Source: Naegleria gruberi (taxonomy: Eukaryota). From it: DNA of 64,000 nucleotides. Positions 446-12,600 of the stretch are shown here, piece by piece (position 1 is the stretch's first letter; each line of letters starts with the position of its first letter). The stretch lies in NCBI GenBank assembly GCA_000004985.1, contig GG738855.1. One strand, written 5' to 3'. Below the pieces are notes generated by a model. The model ran no database searches, was not told the DNA's origin, and worked only from the letters and a program-made list of their open reading frames with translations. A program made the translations under genes and the position numbers.

Positions 446-3400
446 TTAAGAAAGATCAAAGGTGTTTCTTCCCAATTGTATAGATGTTTCCATTCTTAGT
501 TTGAGAGTTTGGAGCGATGTGTAGGCAGGTAATTTCAAATAGTTGAAACATGTATTGGATGTAGGTAAGGTATTGTCTGGGTTTTGACCTGTCTTTTCGA
601 CGATAGTAATCTTCAATCCATCTATTGGAATTCTAGAACAACCGGTTACAAATTGAAGGAAGAGCTTTTGTTCTGATGCGCTCAAAGATAACAACCATTC
701 CATTAAGAAGAGAATTGGTTCAGAATTGATGGTATAACCGTGTGAACATTGAATACAATCGAGCAAAGATTGCTTATCCTTCCATATTTCATCGCTTCCC
801 TTGATAAAGAGTGATATTTCATCTGATGAAAAGCTCTTCAACAATTTCAAACCCCTATTCGAAATTATTTCTCTCAAACCAAATCTGATACAATTAATTT
901 GTTCCATAACTCCCTCATTACACAAATAATTGGTCAAGCATGTCACATATTCATCAATGTTGTGAATTGTTACATCACTTGAAATTTCCTCGAGTGGTTT
1001 CAATTTGTAATTACCAAATGTGAAATCTAAGCTCAGCAAATCAATTTCAGATTTGAGCTTTTCCCATTCCTCTGAACCCTCTTGAATATTCTTCTTAATA
1101 TCTGCATATTTTATAATGGAGGTGATAGAGGTGAACAGTGTAGGATTGATTGAAGAATAGTCATTCAATTGGCATGGAGAGTTTGAAATTATCATATCTA
1201 TCATATTCAAGTTACATTCAAGATCCAAAAGTCTACCATCTTCAATGGCCTTACCAATCAAGGATCCCACCAGAGAGTACATGAATTGTTTCTCACCAGA
1301 TAAATGTTCAAAACTATTTTCAGATACAAGCTCAGGGAAGATACCGTATGCTGTTTTTACATAATCAGAATCGTCACTGGATTGATTCATCCACAAGCAG
1401 TGTTGCTTCTTTTGTAATTCTCTTGAAAGTAAATCAAAGAAAGCCCTCGTTGGACCAAGGCCAGTTCCGACTAATGAAATAATTAGACAAAGAAAATGAA
1501 ATACTTACCTTCATTTTCATATTCGAACTCCAAAATAGATTTAGAGGAGAAATTTTGTGGTTTGATTTGGGAAAGAGTTTGTTCTACTATTTTCTCTCTG
1601 TCCATAATTTTGACTTTCTCTGACTTTTTCCTGCCAATTCTAGTATCATTCGAGTCACCAACAGCTCCACACTGAGATTGAAGAATAGATGAAGGATGGA
1701 GAGTGACGCCACTCCACTTGAAGAAGAAATTTCTTCTTGTAGAAAGAGGTAGAAGGAAAGTTCCACAATGTGTTGCAATATTGTACATCCAAGATGGGAG
1801 AGTTCCACTAATCATTGCCAAAACAAGCCCAATGAAATATGAGTCCTTATTTTGTTGGATAATGAACTTGCTAGCCACTTGAAGGTTTTGGAAATTGCTT
1901 GGATCGATAATATTGTTGTTCTTTCTGTTTAGTTCGAAGAGAACCTTGAGAAGAATCAGGCAATTTGTCAATTCTTGTGAATGTGATTTCATATCTGCAG
2001 TAAATTGCTTGATCCATAGTAGTAATTTTTCGTTGAATGGACTCTTGGTTGGGTGTGTATTTTGGTGACTGTTCTCTTTCAAAAATTCCTTCAATTTGTG
2101 TGTTTTGTCAACAAATTTGTATGAAATTTCATACTCTTTGCTGAAAAGTTCCAAAATAACACTCTCCTCACACAGAGATAGCTTCTTCTCATTTAGAACT
2201 GTTTCAAAGAGAGTTAGTGAAGGCTCATCGCATAAATTCCCATCAATCGATATTTGAATCTGCTTGCCTTGAAGATCAATCTTTGAGGCTATAAAGTTCT
2301 CTATTGTCTTTATAGTAATAAGTGGCTCTGCCTTGAGGGAACCCTTCCAATCATGAGTTGAATTAGTAGGTTTAATATTCAAAACGACTCCTGATGCAAA
2401 CTTTTTCACTGTAGCTTCAGTGATACTAATATCTGATATTTTGAATGAGCTTTGAGCCAGCTTATCAATGAGGGAATGTAATAACTCTACCAAATTGGAC
2501 AAAACATCTCTATTCCTCACGATATACTTTTCCAAATCTTCAACACTGAAATCAAATGCAGAGATCAATGCATTAGTAAAGCTAGTCACAAAATTGGATT
2601 GCTCAAATGAGTATGATGAAATGGTTGATTGGTTAAGTATGTTGGCTAGTTCCTGCATAATTTCGCTATCAATTAAATTCTTTTTCAAAGAGGAACAAAT
2701 AGAGTGGAGCTTATTTTCCTCCTCTGAGGTATGATTGTAGTGAAGCTTGTCAGAGAAATAGTTATCTAAAATTGCCTGAGAGTTTGATTGGATAAGCCTA
2801 CTAATTGAAGTTTCAATAGGCTCTGATTGAGAATCTTTGGAAGAGTTAATCAATTCAGTGAGTGTACTTATAACTCCCTCTCTTAGAATAATCTTTTTAA
2901 CAGAGTCAAAACCACTATCAAGCTTGAGCAGAGAATGAATAATATGCAAGCAATTGGTAATTACAATAGAATCAAGTCTTGTAGCGTTTGAAAACTCTTG
3001 AGCAGACATGGTGAGATACATTGGTGAGCTATCTGTATCTTCGGAGGAACCTGCAGAGGAGGTATCATCTACATCCATCTTGTGGTGAGAGTATTGATTG
3101 AGGGTTTTGATCGCATATTTGGCAAGTATTTGTACACTTCTGGTTGGGATCTTGGAGGAGGATTTTTGATGGCTATTTACAAAACTATTCAAAATTTTAC
3201 AAATAATGTTAAGGCAATCTTTTCTATAAAACTCATTAGTAGAAAGGGCAATAAGAGGCTCTAATAATTCTTCCAAAGCATATTCAGAAATAAGCTTTTT
3301 GTTTTCTGTATCAAGTTTTGAGAAGGTGTTAAGTTTGATGAATTTATCCTTGCTCTTTGTGAGAGTTGGTTTCGTACTGGAGGATTTACTTCTGCTACCT

Positions 3401-5154
3401 ATAACAGATTGAGGTGTTGTTGGTGTTGTGGGTGTTGATTCGTTTGGTTTTTGTTTTTTGAAAAATCTTGTAAAGAAACCCTCCTTTTTGGTTGGAGATT
3501 CTGGTGTTTTAGAGGTTGGGCTCTCCTTACCATGTGCAGATTCACTACTAGTAGTAGTGGAGCCACCAATTAACATGCAAACATCTCTCGAGAAGGAACA
3601 AGGAATTGGATCTCTCTTGATATTTCTCATAAGGTTGGTACTACTGTATTGTTTGAGTTCTAATAGGTCAATCTTGTAAGCTCTACCTGCAATGTAAATG
3701 GTAAATTGACTATCTACATGTCCCTCACGATAATACTTTTCAAGTTCTGCGTTAGCTGTCTCGTCATATTCATTCAAATTGTGATAATCATCCTCCCAAT
3801 AATATTTAGTAGCACCATAAATATATTGTGCAATTACTTTGGAATCATCAACTTCTGGGAACAAATTACTCAAGAAGTATAATATAGAATCCTGCAATAG
3901 ATTGAAACTTTCCATTACTTTCTCATTATTACCAGAAATTACATAATCTTGTTGTTGAGGATCTATCCACTTTTTGAGTGAGAGGAATAAACTTCTTCCA
4001 GAGTGGTTTGGATTTACCATTTCATTCAAAACTTTTGGAGAAGCATCTGAGTACAAATGCAAAGTACTGACGATATATCTTGATATAGTGGCAGATGCAT
4101 GAGAAATAGTATCTGTAGCTTCACTCAATTTTTCCAGCATTTGAGTTAACATGGATGTATTCGCAACTTGTGAAGCTACAGTTTCAATAATTGAAGAGTT
4201 GGATTTGCTTTCTTTTGATTTTTTAGACTTGAGAGTGCCTTTTTGAAATCTACTTCTCTCAATAATATAAGCAAAAGTGTCACAAATGATTTTAAATGTT
4301 TGTAGTGACTGTCTTGTTGAATTTACATCACCTGAAGCATTTGAAAGAATGCTATGGCTTGTTACAATATTAATTTGACGAATTAATGCATCAAGAGCGC
4401 CTGCTTGCTCAATAAAAGTGGAAAAATCTTCCTTCACTCTCATCTTTCTAAACAAGTTACAAATAGTTTTCAAAGCAGATTGTTTGATTCTGGATGAAAA
4501 CATTGGACTATCCAGACAATTCAATAAAATACCAATAAAACCTGCTTCACTGCTTCCACTTGCGTTTTCATGATCATCATTATCGTTTGATGAAACAGTA
4601 TTAAATAGAGCAGTTGGTTCTTCAATACTTATCTTGTCAAAACATTTCAAAATTTCTTCCAGCATACTTTCATTTACAAATTCTCCAAATAAATCTGTTG
4701 CACGTAAACTATTCGAATGCTCCTCTTCATCCTTTTTCGATGATTTTGAAAATTGTTTTAACAATTCTAACAATGATTCTATTGGGTGATATGAAAGCAC
4801 AGTCGGAACGCTTCTTGGAACCATCTCAAGAACAATACCAAGAGCTCTAAGAATTAAAGTTACAATTTCCCTGGTTTGATTCCATCCATTTTGAATTTCG
4901 GAAACATCTGATGATCCTTCAGAGAGTTGACTTTCTAAACTTTTAACTGATGTTACCTTTTCCTTTAGGAGAGGGATGAGAACTGATGACCAACCATAAA
5001 CATCAAATCCTTGAATAAAATCCTCCATACCAATACACAGGAAGGTACACAATTCATTGAGTGAATTTATCTTCTCCTGATCAGTAGAGAGGTTTTGAAA
5101 ATCACTAGAACTCAAACTCATAGATCCGAAACCTTCATCATAGTCTTCGTACAT
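446..5154 (-). CDS. HECT-domain E3 ubiquitin ligase with ARM-like N-terminus and a WWE domain (TRIP12/UFD4/UPL3-type). Model: complement(join(446..1470,1509..5154)), about 1556 aa.
   Basis: The C-terminal ORF carries the HECT C-lobe (FLQFVTGCSRIPIDGL...LPTSNTCFNYLKLPAYTSLQTLKLRMETSI). A 38-nt intron (GTAAGT...TTAG) joins ...EFEYENE|VGTGLGPTRAFFDLLSRE, which is the HECT N-lobe start. A WWE-like segment lies upstream (YYWEDDYHNLNEYDETANAELEKYYREGHVDSQFTIYIAGRAYKIDLLELKQ...RNIKRD). The long N-terminus has an ARM/HEAT character. Confidence 0.8.
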
Positions 5155-5337: not shown

Positions 5338-6170
5338 TTACAATAACATACAGAGTCCACCCTTCTTGTTGTTTTTCTTTGGTGTCATTCTACCATACAA
5401 ACTAACTCGAATGGCATCATCGAATACCTTCTTCAAACCAATTTTTGTTTTGGAAGAACATTCCACATAACCAGCTGCATCCAAAAAGTCTGCCAATTCT
5501 TGGCCTTCCTTGTATGTTACAATTTTTTCTTCTCTTGCTTCCATTTTCTTGACATAGTTCACATCATTTCTCAAATCGAGCTTGGTTCCTACCAAGATAA
5601 CATGTGCTGAAGGGCAATGCTTGCTAATTTCAGTGTGCCATTTAACCTTAGCATTGACAAATGAAGAATGTTCAACTAAGGAGAAACAAAGTAAGAAGAC
5701 GTTTGTATCAGGATAGGAGAGAGGTCTCAAACGATCATAATCCTATTGTCATTATTATTCCGTTACATATTTAAATAACTATTTTCCAAAAGATCTTTCA
5801 CATACCTCTTGACCAGCTGTTCACGAATAGTCCAATGCTTAGCAAAAAAAGACATTTTAAAAACGTACCAGTATCCCACAAAGTAAGGTTTACCTTTCTA
5901 TTATCTACGAGAACACTACAACTCTAAATTAATGTTTGTACATGTTGCTGCCCAAATTAAAAAACCTACATAATTATCGAAAACTGTTGGAACATAGTCA
6001 TTCAAAAATTCCTTTCCAGAATAGACGATTAATAGACATGTTTTACCCACGTTACCGTCGCCTTAATGTGTTCAAGATCATAATTATAATCTCCTTTATT
6101 TTTATCTGCCTTACTTACCAACAACAACAATTTTGAGAGTAGTTGCCTCACCACCAACGCTATTGGACAT
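5338..6170 (-). CDS. Rho-family small GTPase (Rac-like) with CAAX end (CMLL). Model: complement(join(5338..5742,5806..5816,5869..5923,5970..6061,6119..6170)).
   Basis: The spliced product is [92 protein letters not shown]...LVGTKLDLR...CMLL. The G1 (GDGNVGKT), switch II (WDTAGQE) and G4 (TKLD) motifs are all recovered only with introns of 57, 46, 52 and 63 nt. This requires an 11-nt micro-exon (CTGGTCAAGAG) that supplies AGQE. Confidence 0.75.
5806..5816 (-). other. 11-nt micro-exon of the Rac-like gene, encoding part of switch II (xAGQE)
   Basis: It is flanked by an AG acceptor (minus-strand ...gaacag|) and a GTATGT donor. It is required to restore the frame and the invariant DTAGQE motif between ...LWDT G| and |[10 protein letters not shown]. 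Confidence 0.6.
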
Positions 6171-6311: not shown

Positions 6312-7184
6312 TTAGTAAGTTGGGTTCCAATTAGCAATCTTGGCAATGAGAGGTTCTGAAAACCCAAAGATATGTAACAATGACATGATAAGTAATACAA
6401 AAAGTAAAACCCAAACAAAAATTTGGCAAAAACCTATTCCGTCAGTTCTTGGTTCTCTGTTTTGCTTACTTAGATTTTGTTCGAGCCATTCATCCAAAAT
6501 TTCTTTGATTTTTTCAGTGGTATCTGGTTTTTCCTGAAAGCTTTTCTCTTCCATTTTTGGCACAACTTGTGTTGAGGTAGTGCTGAGAATATCAGAGTTT
6601 GATTCTTTCATTTCCCTGATAAGCATACTATCCATTTTTTGAATTTCATCCTTTGTCTCATCAAATCTGTCTCTGATTTGACCAATTTCTTGTTGTAATG
6701 TTTGACTTCCTTTTAATTCATCATCCAATAATTTTCTCACTGTATTGTGACTACTCTCAATAGAGGATAATCCCTCCTTTATCCTAGCAATATTTTGTTC
6801 TACGTGTTCTTGTATTTTAGGATTAGAGAATGATTTTGTAGATTTAGATGAAGAATTTAGGTAACCAACAATGAGAGTTCTTGGTGTTAGTAATTCCGAT
6901 GCAGGAGTGAAATCTAGTAGCGAAGATTTTTTGGTTGGTAGTGAAAATCGTTGTTTGTTGTTGTTTTTTGTAGTGGTGGCACCGTTACGTGGTGAATTAA
7001 TTGATGAAGAAGGGGTTGTGCTTTCCATTTCTTCTAAAGATGACGTCCCTTGTGTGGAGTCTTGTTGAATTTTTGTTTGGTTTGATGCTGCATTATTGGC
7101 TTCTGAATTTGTCACTTCCCTCTCTGTTTCTGTTGGTGATGCTTGACGAAATTGTTGGTTATGCTTGTTTATCTTTTTTGTCAT
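6312..7184 (-). CDS. Tail-anchored coiled-coil membrane protein (SNARE-like architecture, family not assigned)
   Basis: 290-aa ORF with an ATG at 7182-7184. The N-terminus is Ser/Thr/Asn-rich. A central heptad-like region (SIESSHNTVRKLLDDELKGSQTLQQEIGQIRDRFDETKDEIQKMDSMLIREMKE) is followed by a single C-terminal TM helix (FCQIFVWVLLFVLLIMSLLHIFGF). Confidence 0.5.
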   Translation of the reverse strand: MTKKINKHNQQFRQASPTETEREVTNSEANNAASNQTKIQQDSTQGTSSLEEMESTTPSSSINSPRNGATTTKNNNKQRFSLPTKKSSLLDFTPASELLTPRTLIVGYLNSSSKSTKSFSNPKIQEHVEQNIARIKEGLSSIESSHNTVRKLLDDELKGSQTLQQEIGQIRDRFDETKDEIQKMDSMLIREMKESNSDILSTTSTQVVPKMEEKSFQEKPDTTEKIKEILDEWLEQNLSKQNREPRTDGIGFCQIFVWVLLFVLLIMSLLHIFGFSEPLIAKIANWNPTY

Positions 7185-7256: not shown

Positions 7257-8603
7257 TTAATGTTTAATATTTGATTTCTTTTTCTTTTTTGCTTGTTGTT
7301 GACTCATGACAGCATCCATAGATTCCTTAATCATTGTTAGATTCTTCTCTACTTTGGATTTAGACATGTCTGCACCAATATCAGAGGACAATCCTTCCAA
7401 AAAATTGTCCAGTTTCATCTTGTTTCTTTTCAGATCACAAAGTGCTGCTAATGATTTTGGATCCATTCCTCTTGCATATTCTCTTCCTATATTTCTATTG
7501 ACTGCTTTTAGATCCAATTGAGATGCACTTGCTTGCTTTTTCTTATACTCGGCCATAAGTTGCATTGTTGATGTTTTCATTGACTCGTCAAGACCAAGCG
7601 TTTCTTCGTACTCAAACAGGTGATTATCAAAAGTTGGATTATTCTTTAAGGTTTTTCTGTGCTCTGTGAATTTTTGAAATGCATTAACAAGTCTGCAAGG
7701 TGCCACCTCAGGTAATTTGGAACAGGATGCAGCCCTAGTGGTAGAGAATGAGATACGCGAATCCTTCCTCTTTAAAAATTCAGGTTCAGGAGGTGACAGG
7801 AATCTGCTAGAGCTGTTTGTTGAGCCAGCACTGGTGTGAAACCCATTCTCAGTCATGGAAATATCAAATGTTGTTGAGCTTGAGGATCTCAGTATAGGCT
7901 TTCTCACATGAGGCAAAGTTGGTCCAGTATTACAAATGGAATTACTTGTGGAGAATAGAGCCTCTGCACTTCTTGAATGTTTCAATTCGCTTTTTCTGGC
8001 AATGAGAGGTGTCTTGGCAGGAGGAGAAATTGCCCTTGGTGACTGTGACAGAGAAGAGAGGGCAGAGGAAGGTTCTGATATTACAACTCTCGATTGAATA
8101 AAGGAAGTTGAAGAATTGTTCTGAAATGAGACCTTCTTTGCCAGTGCCTTTTGATTATAAGATGATGGGGATGTATTCGTTGTGATGTAGCTAGACTCCA
8201 TACAAGTTGTGATGGAAATAGTCGAGTTTTTATCATGGTGGTGGAGTGGTTGAAGTGTTGGTGGTGGATGAATGAGGATACCACTGTTGTCAATGCTGTA
8301 TAGAGGGGACGATCCCACAGAGAGTGAACTGTGCGATCTTTCCGAAGATGATTGAGGTGAAGTTTGTGGTAATTTTACAGCTGAGAGAGAGTAACTGGAA
8401 GAGATGGAGAGTGGAGAAGGTGGTGATTGCTTCTTAACTTTCTTATCTGTGGAATTAAGCTTGATAGGGGTTAGAACAGGTGATGATGATAATCGTTGTC
8501 GCAAAAAGATATCATCTGAAAGGACAGAACTTGGAGATGGTGTAGCCTCAAACCCAATGTGAGAAGTTGTTGGAGGAGTCCTTAATGATATTTCACTGCT
8601 CAT
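7257..8603 (-). CDS. Ser-rich low-complexity protein of unknown function
   Basis: The long ORF is 7257..8660, but its codon at 8660 is TTG. The first ATG gives MSSEISLRTPPTTSH... at 8603. The product is S/T/P-rich with a lysine-rich C-terminus. It is coding-like in composition but has no recognisable domain. Confidence 0.45.
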   Translation of the reverse strand: MSSEISLRTPPTTSHIGFEATPSPSSVLSDDIFLRQRLSSSPVLTPIKLNSTDKKVKKQSPPSPLSISSSYSLSAVKLPQTSPQSSSERSHSSLSVGSSPLYSIDNSGILIHPPPTLQPLHHHDKNSTISITTCMESSYITTNTSPSSYNQKALAKKVSFQNNSSTSFIQSRVVISEPSSALSSLSQSPRAISPPAKTPLIARKSELKHSRSAEALFSTSNSICNTGPTLPHVRKPILRSSSSTTFDISMTENGFHTSAGSTNSSSRFLSPPEPEFLKRKDSRISFSTTRAASCSKLPEVAPCRLVNAFQKFTEHRKTLKNNPTFDNHLFEYEETLGLDESMKTSTMQLMAEYKKKQASASQLDLKAVNRNIGREYARGMDPKSLAALCDLKRNKMKLDNFLEGLSSDIGADMSKSKVEKNLTMIKESMDAVMSQQQAKKKKKSNIKH

Positions 8604-9640
8604 GGAATATTTTAATAACAATAATTTAATATAAAGGAGATGATGAGTTGTTGAGTTCAATCACCATATGATAACACTCAATGAGCGACCAGGATAAGCA
8701 GTATTGGATGTTAAGAAGGTAATTGAGTCAATTTTTATAATAGTTAACCTGCTTCATGAAAATGTGGCGGCTCCCTATTTGGATAGTGAAAATATGGTGT
8801 TTTTGTTGCCTGTTCAATATTTATTAGGAGCGAGATAAAGAAATGTCTAATAAATCTTGGGTGGATGCAATTTATGTCACGTCCCTTAATAGTTATATGC
8901 TAGACATATTAGTTGTTTGAGTTCGTGGAGAAAGTTTCAGTCATTTTGGTGCATTCCTATTGTTCCAGTTATTGAATCTGTATTTTGATCGAACATTTAG
9001 ATTCCATCATTGGATTCACAATAGTGTCTTTTTCAAAGAACTTGAAAGGTGTAGATTGAACTTGAAGTGATAGGACAATAATGAGAGCAACCTCAAATTG
9101 ACCAAAGATTTTTCTAGTGTCCAATAATTTTGATTAGTTTCCATTTTAAAGATAAGATACATTAAAAACCTTTACAACTATCTCTAATATACATATTTCT
9201 CAATTTATTCTTGCAATCTTCAAGTGTTTCTTCTCTTGATACTATGGAAACAAAATATAACGTTTTGTAATCCATACTGTAGTTAACATGGCTTCATCAT
9301 TTCTAGCGCGGTGAATTTCATTGAACTAGACCATCCAATTCGATAATGGTTGCAAACAATAGTTTCTAATATCGTTCCATTTCACAATTTAAAAACATCA
9401 TTTCACACAACTAATAATGTAATAGAATAAAAGTCGAAACCCTCTTGAACTAGAGAGTAACCTTCATTGATGACTACAAGTATGAGATGAGACTAGATAC
9501 TTGCCTTGAAATTAATTAAAGCTCCTCCACATTCTGGAGTCATGGAGAACCAACACAAAAAAAAACTTCCAATCAAATACCTATTTGAATCTATTTGAAG
9601 AGATTATCATCACTGTGTGTTATCTATTTTTCAAAAAACA

Positions 9641-12600
9641 ATGATGATGATGATGACTACGATGGGAGATAACAACAAACATTCACCGACATTCAAGTTG
9701 GTTGTGCTGATGATTCTTGCTGCAACAGTATTGTTATCATGTGCAGTAGTAGAGGCTTCAAGTAGTAATGGCATTCCTTTCCTTTCCATGATTCATGAGG
9801 AGAATAGAGTGAGCGAAGCAGAAAAAGATAACGGAGGTATTTTCGAATTGACCTTTGCTAATAATCTTTTTAATAATAAGAATCGTTTAAATACTTTAAT
9901 GTTGAGAAGAGAATTGACAAATAGTAGAGAATCAGTTGAACCATATACTCAATTTATTATCAAGTTGAAGGATAATGTTACATCAAGAAAGAGAATGAAT
10001 AGCCAAGTTCAACAATTGATTTCGGGTGCTGTTCCTTTGGGTTCCTCTCAGATCATGTCAGTTGTTGCACGTACATCAGAAATTATTGATCATGTAGGTG
10101 AACAAGATCATCATACCATTGAATGGATTGGAGAATATGAAACTAGATTCAAGTCAAGTCTTCATTTTGCTAAAATGCAAGAACTCGCTAGAAAGGAAGA
10201 AAATCCAGTTAACTCTGATTTGATGGACTTTGTCATTTCAACAATTCCATCCATTGATGCTGTTTCTAAAGGAAGTGAATTGAATGAATTGGAACAAGTT
10301 GCAAAGAAATTGAACAGTCAAATAGGATCACTTTTTGATGTCACTCAATTCTCTCCAATTCAAGTCGTAGATAGAGAAAAGATGCAAATTTCCTTCTCTC
10401 CTCTTATTGCTAAACAAATTTCTGATATTATTTTGGAAAATCCACATGTTCACTTTGTAGATAGAAAGCCAATTTATTCTTTATTTAACAAGGAAGGATC
10501 AATTTCTATGCAATCAGTTTCTCCAACTCAACCACAATCAACTCCATTCTATGATATGGGTATTTATGGAAATGATCAAGTTGTTGCAGTTTCTGATACT
10601 GGTATCGATTGGGATCACTGTTTTTATTCTGATGCAAACATTACTAAAATTGCTACCAACACTGTTTATGCTAATCATAGAAAGATTGTAGAATATAGAA
10701 CTGTTACAGTTTCTAATGGCAATTCTGGTCTTGTTACTTCTGATGGACAAGATGGAATTGACGGCCATGGTACACACGTAAGTTATTTCATTGTTTGATG
10801 ATTTTTTAATTTCAAAATTTACAGGTTGTTGGAAGCGTTGCTGGTTCTATTCAATCACCAATTACAGCTGATCAACAAGCTATTAACAATTATCATGGTA
10901 TGGCTCCAAATGCCAGAATTCACTTTACTGATATTCAAAAAACAGGCAGTAGTGCACTCTTGATTCCAGCTTCGTTGACCAGTATTTTTGAGCCAGCTTA
11001 CAAATTGAATGCTAGAATTTTCTCTAATTCCTGGGGTGCTGCACCAAATAATCTCATTGCTTGTGATTATGACTGTGTAAATTGTAGATGGGCTGTTTCT
11101 GTATCTGTCTATCGTAAAGGTCAACCAGTTTATGATTCTGATTGCAAATACTTGTTCGGCAGTCAAACTTGTTGTTCAATTGTTAATAAGTATGATTCTC
11201 AATGTAGAGATATCGACACCTTTTTGTGGAATAATCAAGATGCTATCATTCTCTTTGCTCAAGGTAACTCTGGTAGAATTTCTTCAAAGGAAAATATTGG
11301 AAGTCCAGCAACTTCAAAGAATGGTGTTTCTATTGGTGCTTCCAAAACTTCAAACAGTGCCTTTATTGATTCAGTTCAATATGAAGATATGATGCACAGA
11401 ATCAAAGAAGCAGGTCTTTCCTTCACTTCCCCAGAACAATGTTGCTCTTACACTGGTAGTAATGCTGATGCCATTCGTGCTTTCTGTTGTTCAGCCACTA
11501 TGAAGGATAAATATTCCAGTAATCCAAGTTATTTCAATGCTGACAATTTAGCTTCTTTCAGTAGTAGAGGTCCAGCTATTGGTGATAGAATCAAACCAGA
11601 CGTTAGTGGTATTGGTGATAATGTTGTATCAGGTCACAGTGATGGTGATACTACCACTTATCAATGCTCAAATATTTCACCAAATTTGTATAACAGAGCT
11701 GCTTTAATGGTAAGTTTTAATTATATAGTTCATAGTGAATTAATATTTGAATTTTTAATAGACAAATCAAGGTACTAGGTAAGTCATTCATTGAATGATT
11801 ATTTTTAATCGACCTCTTAATTTTCACAATTTTTATAATTTTTGTAAATCTTATTAAATAGTATGGCAACACCATTGACAGGTAAGTAATAATTATTATT
11901 ACTTTTTATTAATATATTGAAAAATACACAGCTGGTGGTCTTGCATTGTTGAGAGAATATTTACAAAAGAAGATGGGTATTTCTAACCCATCTGGTCCGC
12001 TTTTGAAGGCTGCTCTTGTTCACAGCTCAATTCCACTCTCTGGAAGTGTTGCTAAAAGCACTGATGAATCTAGTAGAATTTTGATTTCATCAATGGGTAA
12101 CCCTAATTCCTATGAAGGTCATGGTAGAGTTTATCTTGGAAGTTTATTAAAGAGTGGCAACAATTCAACTGTCAACTTGACACTTATTGAGAAGACTTTC
12201 ACATCATCAAATGAAAAACATAGCCGGTGTTTAAAGATGAAGAGCGGTATTTCCTCATCATCATTTGCCAGTACTGTTGCTTGGTACGATTATCCTAGCT
12301 CAGTATCTGTCGTTCCTTCACTTGTTCAAGATATGGATTTGATTGTTAATATTTATGAAAAGAATGGTGACAAGATTCAATCATTGAAGGTTATTCCTGG
12401 TAATATGCAAGACGCATACGATACCAAAAATAATGTTGAAAAGGTTCTTATCAACTCTATTACAAACGCTGGAACCAATCCTCTTTATGTTACTGTTTCA
12501 GTTAAATTCAAAACATTGACACTCTCAAATCAACCATATGCTTTAGTGTTCAGTTATCCAAGTGGTGATTTTGAATCAGTAGATGCCTCTTCATGTTATT

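Follow-up and report, generated by a model that had tools for sequence, protein, structure and literature searches.

Gene structure and reading frame

Does an exon of only 11 nucleotides supply the catalytic core of a Rho-family GTPase in Naegleria gruberi, and, if so, has it been overlooked? The question arises on the minus strand of positions 5338-6170 of the window, by which we mean the whole 64,000-nt stretch of DNA that was analysed, where the coding sequence of a Rac-like protein breaks off within the DTAGQE motif of switch II. We are highly confident that this locus is a five-exon Rac-like gene of the Rho family (XP_002680099.1) whose fourth exon, 11 nt long and constitutive, encodes Ala-Gly-Gln-Glu (AGQE). 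Read directly and assembled by script, the gene has the following layout:

5338-6170, minus strand: whole five-exon gene
6119-6170, minus strand: exon 1, 52 nt; ATG at 6170-6168; ends with the first base of Gly18
6062-6118, minus strand: intron 1, 57 nt; GTAAGT...TTAAG; phase 1, in Gly18
5970-6061, minus strand: exon 2, 92 nt; P-loop GDGNVGKT and switch I YVPTVFDNY
5924-5969, minus strand: intron 2, 46 nt; GTAGGT...TTTAG; phase 0, after Tyr48
5869-5923, minus strand: exon 3, 55 nt; ends with the first base (G) of Ala67
5817-5868, minus strand: intron 3, 52 nt; GTACGT...AACAG; phase 1, inside the Ala67 codon
5806-5816, minus strand: exon 4, the micro-exon CTGGTCAAGAG, 11 nt; (G)CT GGT CAA GAG = Ala67-Gly68-Gln69-Glu70
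5743-5805, minus strand: intron 4, 63 nt; GTATGT...CAATAG; phase 0, after Glu70
5338-5742, minus strand: exon 5, 405 nt including the TAA stop at 5340-5338; G4 TKLD, Rho insert region, G5 CSSK, polybasic stretch and CAAX box CMLL

Joined in frame by script, the exons form a coding sequence of 52+92+55+11+405 = 615 nt, which translates into 204 amino acids. Along the minus strand, the last bases of exon 3, up to 5869, are GTA AAC CTT ACT TTG TGG GAT ACT G, and exon 5 opens at 5742 with GAT TAT GAT CGT TTG AGA CCT, while the acceptor ends of introns 3 and 4 read GTGAACAG at 5817 and GACAATAG at 5743, respectively. The first-pass annotation of this DNA had already singled out the 11-nt exon, and the coordinates, lengths and splice-site strings that it gave all proved exact on direct reading of the minus strand.

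An 11-nt exon in switch II

The 126 nt between 5869 and 5742 do interrupt the frame, as had been claimed: joining the two positions directly gives LWDTGL followed by a premature stop, and inserting CTGGTCAAGAG, at 5816-5806, restores LWDT-AGQE-DYDRL in phase. Scripted translation of the retained introns ran into stop codons as well. Since skipping exon 4 or retaining either intron leads to a premature stop, only the fully spliced mRNA could make a functional GTPase. The exon has the attributes of a micro-exon, in that it is internal, no longer than 30 nt, bounded by a canonical 3' AG and 5' GT, entered in phase 1 and left in phase 0; and its inclusion is needed for an intact conserved protein, given the stops on skipping or retention and the lack of DTAGQE in the alternatives.

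An exhaustive search of the window returned exactly one GT-AG exon chain that reproduces the 204-aa protein, and in this sole canonical chain the 11-nt exon carries the AGQE of switch II, including the catalytic glutamine, as originally proposed. A further 15 single GT..AG introns bridge exon 3 to exon 5 with an open frame, and DTAGQE is deleted in 15 of the 15. We assign a negligible likelihood to a mature mRNA spliced in some other way, through non-canonical sites or with a small exon other than this one: non-canonical introns occur at low frequency in most eukaryotes, a consideration with nothing specific to this locus, but the GT-AG search has a single solution and no single-intron alternative keeps the motif.

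For DNA of this composition, the number of in-phase AG|CN-GGN-CAR-GAR|GT segments expected per 126 nt is about 1e-6, and a simulation found such a segment in 4 of 2,000,000 random sequences; the 11-nt exon is therefore not a chance match. The exon that supplies Ala-Gly-Gln-Glu to the Rac-like GTPase is real, which confirms the earlier reading. A 44-nt probe spanning both spliced junctions had no match in JGI metagenome and metatranscriptome contigs, a result that is uninformative rather than negative.

A second copy of the locus is found in a 9.9-kb metagenome contig, k127_47540 (ENA ERZ929261; our L003), which is 98% identical to the window over 5600-6060. Its exons differ at four positions, all of them synonymous third positions, and its intron 3 differs from that of the window by one substitution and a 1-nt indel, while no difference occurs in the micro-exon or in intron 4. 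The restriction of exonic changes to synonymous ones, together with the indel in intron 3, fits coding exons under constraint and a non-coding intron 3, and the match between the two contigs rules out a local assembly error. On this contig, a 130-aa metagenome protein (P0037) corresponds to exon 5 alone, with 99% identity and a TTG start inside exon 5; it is the outcome of prokaryote-style gene calling on the Rho locus in a metagenome contig, and illustrates how eukaryotic genes become truncated in metagenome protein catalogues.

These observations also bear on whether the locus could be a decaying pseudogene, one whose switch II has been broken up and in which chance or decay has left something that resembles a micro-exon. 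The contiguous frame is indeed broken over 126 nt, but an in-phase AG|..AGQE..|GT segment has a chance of about 1e-6, the spliced open reading frame is intact with all its G motifs and the CAAX box, the exonic differences to the second strain are synonymous in four of four cases, and two other Naegleria species possess intact, syntenic orthologues. We consider a pseudogene extremely improbable.

How the micro-exon would be spliced

The donor that follows the micro-exon is strong (GAG|GTATGT), and the flanking introns are very short, at 52 and 63 nt, with GT..AG ends. Judging by these lengths, each intron is most likely recognised as one unit, by ordinary intron-definition splicing, in which case the 11-nt exon needs no exon-definition signals and would be included constitutively. 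An RNA structure that juxtaposes the splice sites was also considered and dropped, as the predicted pre-mRNA fold of 5730-5880 shows no structure beyond that of shuffled sequences (z = +1.7).

The micro-exon might instead be a regulated cassette, its skipped transcripts being frameshifted and degraded, so that the level of the GTPase is tuned by unproductive splicing. The immediate stop after LWDTG on skipping is typical of unproductive splicing, and very short exons are prone to being skipped in other systems; but nothing points to an alternative isoform, the exon has canonical sites at both ends and a strong downstream donor, the pre-mRNA fold is unremarkable by the same z-score, and organisms with short introns usually splice across the intron, which makes skipping rare. 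Regulated skipping is accordingly, in our judgement, very unlikely, and constitutive inclusion remains the preferred reading.

The encoded Rac-like protein

The spliced product has intact G1-G5 motifs (GDGNVGKT, the switch-I Thr in YVPTVFDNY, DTAGQE, TKLD and CSSK), in agreement with the first-pass annotation. It matches the Pfam Ras family (PF00071) at 3e-48 over 158 of 162 profile positions, with Roc matched as well. The nearest solved structures are those of Rac2 and Rac1 (E-values of 1.6e-67 to 4e-67, 225-230 bits), followed by Cdc42 at about 209 bits, so that the assignment to Rac-like GTPases, with E-values around 1e-67, also stands. A tryptophan directly precedes the switch-II motif (LWDTAGQE). 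By best match the protein would be called Rac-like, which we regard as the safe wording.

The Rho insert region is present, with residues 115-191 aligning ungapped to Rac2 residues 107-183 (the insert there being DDKDTIEKLKEKKLA), and the C-terminus is polybasic and ends in the CAAX box CMLL, whose terminal leucine we take to predict geranylgeranylation. In its G motifs, Rho insert and CAAX box, the product combines the features that define the Rho family at the level of sequence.

In the alignment, Ala67-Gly68-Gln69-Glu70 corresponds to A59-G60-Q61-E62 of Rac1, which places the catalytic glutamine on the 11-nt exon; by this correspondence with Rac1 Q61, Gln69 would position the attacking water for GTP hydrolysis. 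Compared with human Rac1 and Rac2 (PDB 1ds6, 1i4d and 5fi0), the protein aligns without a gap along about 180 residues that take in the P-loop, switch II and the Rho insert, shares an identical 17-residue segment and likewise has the Rho insert and the tryptophan before DTAGQE, but it differs in an eight-residue N-terminal extension and in its G5 motif, which is CSSK where the human proteins have CSAL. Its P-loop, GDGNVGKT (6040-6061, minus strand), has Asn in place of Ala13 of Rac1. The orthologous proteins of N. fowleri and N. lovaniensis share this Asn, while Willaertia and Acrasis keep the usual Ala. The exon junctions of human RAC1 lie at different codons, and the human gene is not known to have a micro-exon in switch II.

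Intron positions in heterolobosean relatives

A homology search placed the nearest homologues in Naegleria lovaniensis (79% identity), followed by Willaertia magna (63%) and Acrasis kona (58%). Compared in full with the N. gruberi protein, the orthologues XP_044542970.1 of N. lovaniensis and XP_044564188.1 of N. fowleri are 80-81% identical; a search of metagenomes with the exon-5 peptide found no further Naegleria-like orthologues, only distant relatives of at most 55% identity. As in N. gruberi, a single GT-AG exon chain was found for each deposited orthologue protein. The exon lengths are:

N. gruberi (window): 52, 92, 55, 11 and 405 nt
N. lovaniensis and N. fowleri: 58, 92, 55, 28 and 394 nt
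Willaertia magna: 46, 15, 77, 98 and 373 nt
Acrasis kona: 24, 168 and 396 nt

Mapped onto the residue numbering of N. gruberi, the intron positions of the five heterolobosean genes are:

Lys13, phase 0: Acrasis
Gly18, phase 1: all three Naegleria and Willaertia
Gly23, phase 1: Willaertia only
Tyr48, phase 0: all three Naegleria and Willaertia
Ala67, phase 1: all three Naegleria
Gln69, phase 0: Acrasis
Glu70, phase 0: N. gruberi only, among the five genes compared
Arg76, phase 2: N. lovaniensis and N. fowleri
Pro81, phase 2: Willaertia

Introns 1-3 of N. lovaniensis and N. fowleri thus match those of N. gruberi in position and phase, including the one that splits the Ala codon of DTAGQE. In contrast, their fourth exon is 28 nt long (CCGGYCARGAAGAYTAYGATMGATTAAG) where that of N. 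gruberi has 11 nt, their intron 4 (L001:3537-3621 and L004:3588-3702) lies 17 nt further downstream, at Arg76 in phase 2 rather than at Glu70 in phase 0, and their introns are longer, at 53-159 nt. The idea that relatives share the split-codon positions therefore holds, in N. fowleri and N. lovaniensis, for intron 3 on the upstream side of the micro-exon (Ala67, phase 1) but not for intron 4 on its downstream side; the orthologues do not conserve both flanking positions, and Willaertia has neither. On the separately deposited models of three species, the upstream boundary of the micro-exon is conserved across Naegleria. As the downstream intron is shared by none of the other species examined, comparative support for the exact size of 11 nt is confined to N. 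gruberi-like genomes, which concerns how old the 11-nt exon is and leaves its existence untouched.

The orthologue of Willaertia magna (JBEGDK010000157.1) has a micro-exon of its own, the 15-nt GTGATGGTGCTGTTG at L002:3133-3147, which encodes part of the P-loop, (G)DGAVG, and is flanked by introns of 86 and 47 nt; tiny exons hence recur at different sites of this gene family in Heterolobosea.

Among the five Rac-like genes, five distinct intron positions crowd into 43 nt of coding sequence at switch II, a mildly unusual clustering. We think it unlikely, on the whole, that this region is a hot spot of intron turnover in heterolobosean Rac-like genes, and the Acrasis gene in the comparison may be a paralogue. 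Several histories could have led to exons of 11 and 28 nt. An ancestor with both downstream introns, and a 17-nt exon between them, that were lost differentially is compatible with the data, as is intron loss combined with gain. A true relocation of the intron by 17 nt is the least likely of the three; relocations of this kind, by a distance that is not a multiple of three, have rarely been documented. The differing downstream intron within a single genus may be of interest for studies of intron gain, loss or sliding.

The gene model in the public record

An exact-sequence look-up showed the 204-aa spliced product to be identical over all residues to XP_002680099.1 (EFC47355.1; UniProt D2V7D2_NAEGR), entitled "rho family small GTPase [Naegleria gruberi NEG-M]" and recorded on a 613-kb scaffold. 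Because only one canonical exon chain gives the deposited protein, the public gene model must contain the 11-nt exon. The suggestion that annotation would have missed it is thereby overturned, the exact product being in RefSeq already, and so is the affiliation with dictyostelids that had been assumed from sequence: the protein is that of N. gruberi NEG-M, a member of the Heterolobosea, and base composition fits as well. The GC content of the window is about 0.34 (range 0.32-0.37), and the NEG-M genome has a GC content of 33% and a mean of 1.7 exons per gene (PMC8296547). Against this mean, a Rac-like gene of five exons is intron-rich for N. gruberi.

The model with the 11-nt exon is already known: GenBank and RefSeq have carried it ever since the N. 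gruberi genome was released, so that no correction of the annotation is needed. In our literature search no paper turned up on Naegleria micro-exons, including the one in XP_002680099.1, and nothing relevant on intron positions in Rho genes; the silence on Naegleria micro-exons reflects a lack of attention, not a new phenomenon. Constitutive coding micro-exons are, as a general class, known from plants, animals and fungi. The N. gruberi exon resembles them in being internal, far shorter than 30 nt, bounded by canonical sites, frame-keeping and located inside a conserved domain, but it sits between very short introns and in an intron-poor heterolobosean amoeba, and is not known to undergo alternative splicing. 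Beyond quality control its significance is small, although it makes a clean textbook case, with the residue equivalent to the catalytic Gln61 encoded on an exon of 11 nt.

Genomic neighbourhood

A tblastn search of the window found the Rac-like gene as its only Rho gene, with no second paralogue, and neither an Rfam scan nor a tRNA scan returned an RNA gene there. A stretch of the minus strand at 7257-8660, with a local GC content of up to 0.42 and a strong positive GC skew of up to 0.47, coincides with an ORF of 467 aa that is rich in Ser, Pro and Thr, of low complexity and without a Pfam match. The ORFs 6315-7184 and 10900-11775 were looked up by exact sequence in the protein collection, where neither product occurs; presumably, the annotated models differ from the plain ORFs.

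Upstream of the Rac-like gene lies an ORF of 290 aa (6312-7184, minus strand), with no Pfam match and with no exact copy of its product in the protein collection. Its N-terminal half is rich in Ser, Thr and Asn, a charged region looks like a coiled coil, and a hydrophobic stretch, FCQIFVWVLLFVLLIMSLLHIF, lies near its C-terminus; this composition suggests a tail-anchored membrane protein. In N. fowleri and N. lovaniensis, in contrast, the upstream neighbour is a DPP-IV/S9 peptidase.

The gene directly downstream (446-5154, minus strand) is large and encodes a ubiquitin ligase with a WWE and a HECT domain, and consists of two ORFs, 1483-5154 and 446-1396, that are presumably split by a short intron. 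The order of the Rho gene followed by the HECT gene is kept in N. fowleri, in N. lovaniensis and in the ENA metagenome contig.
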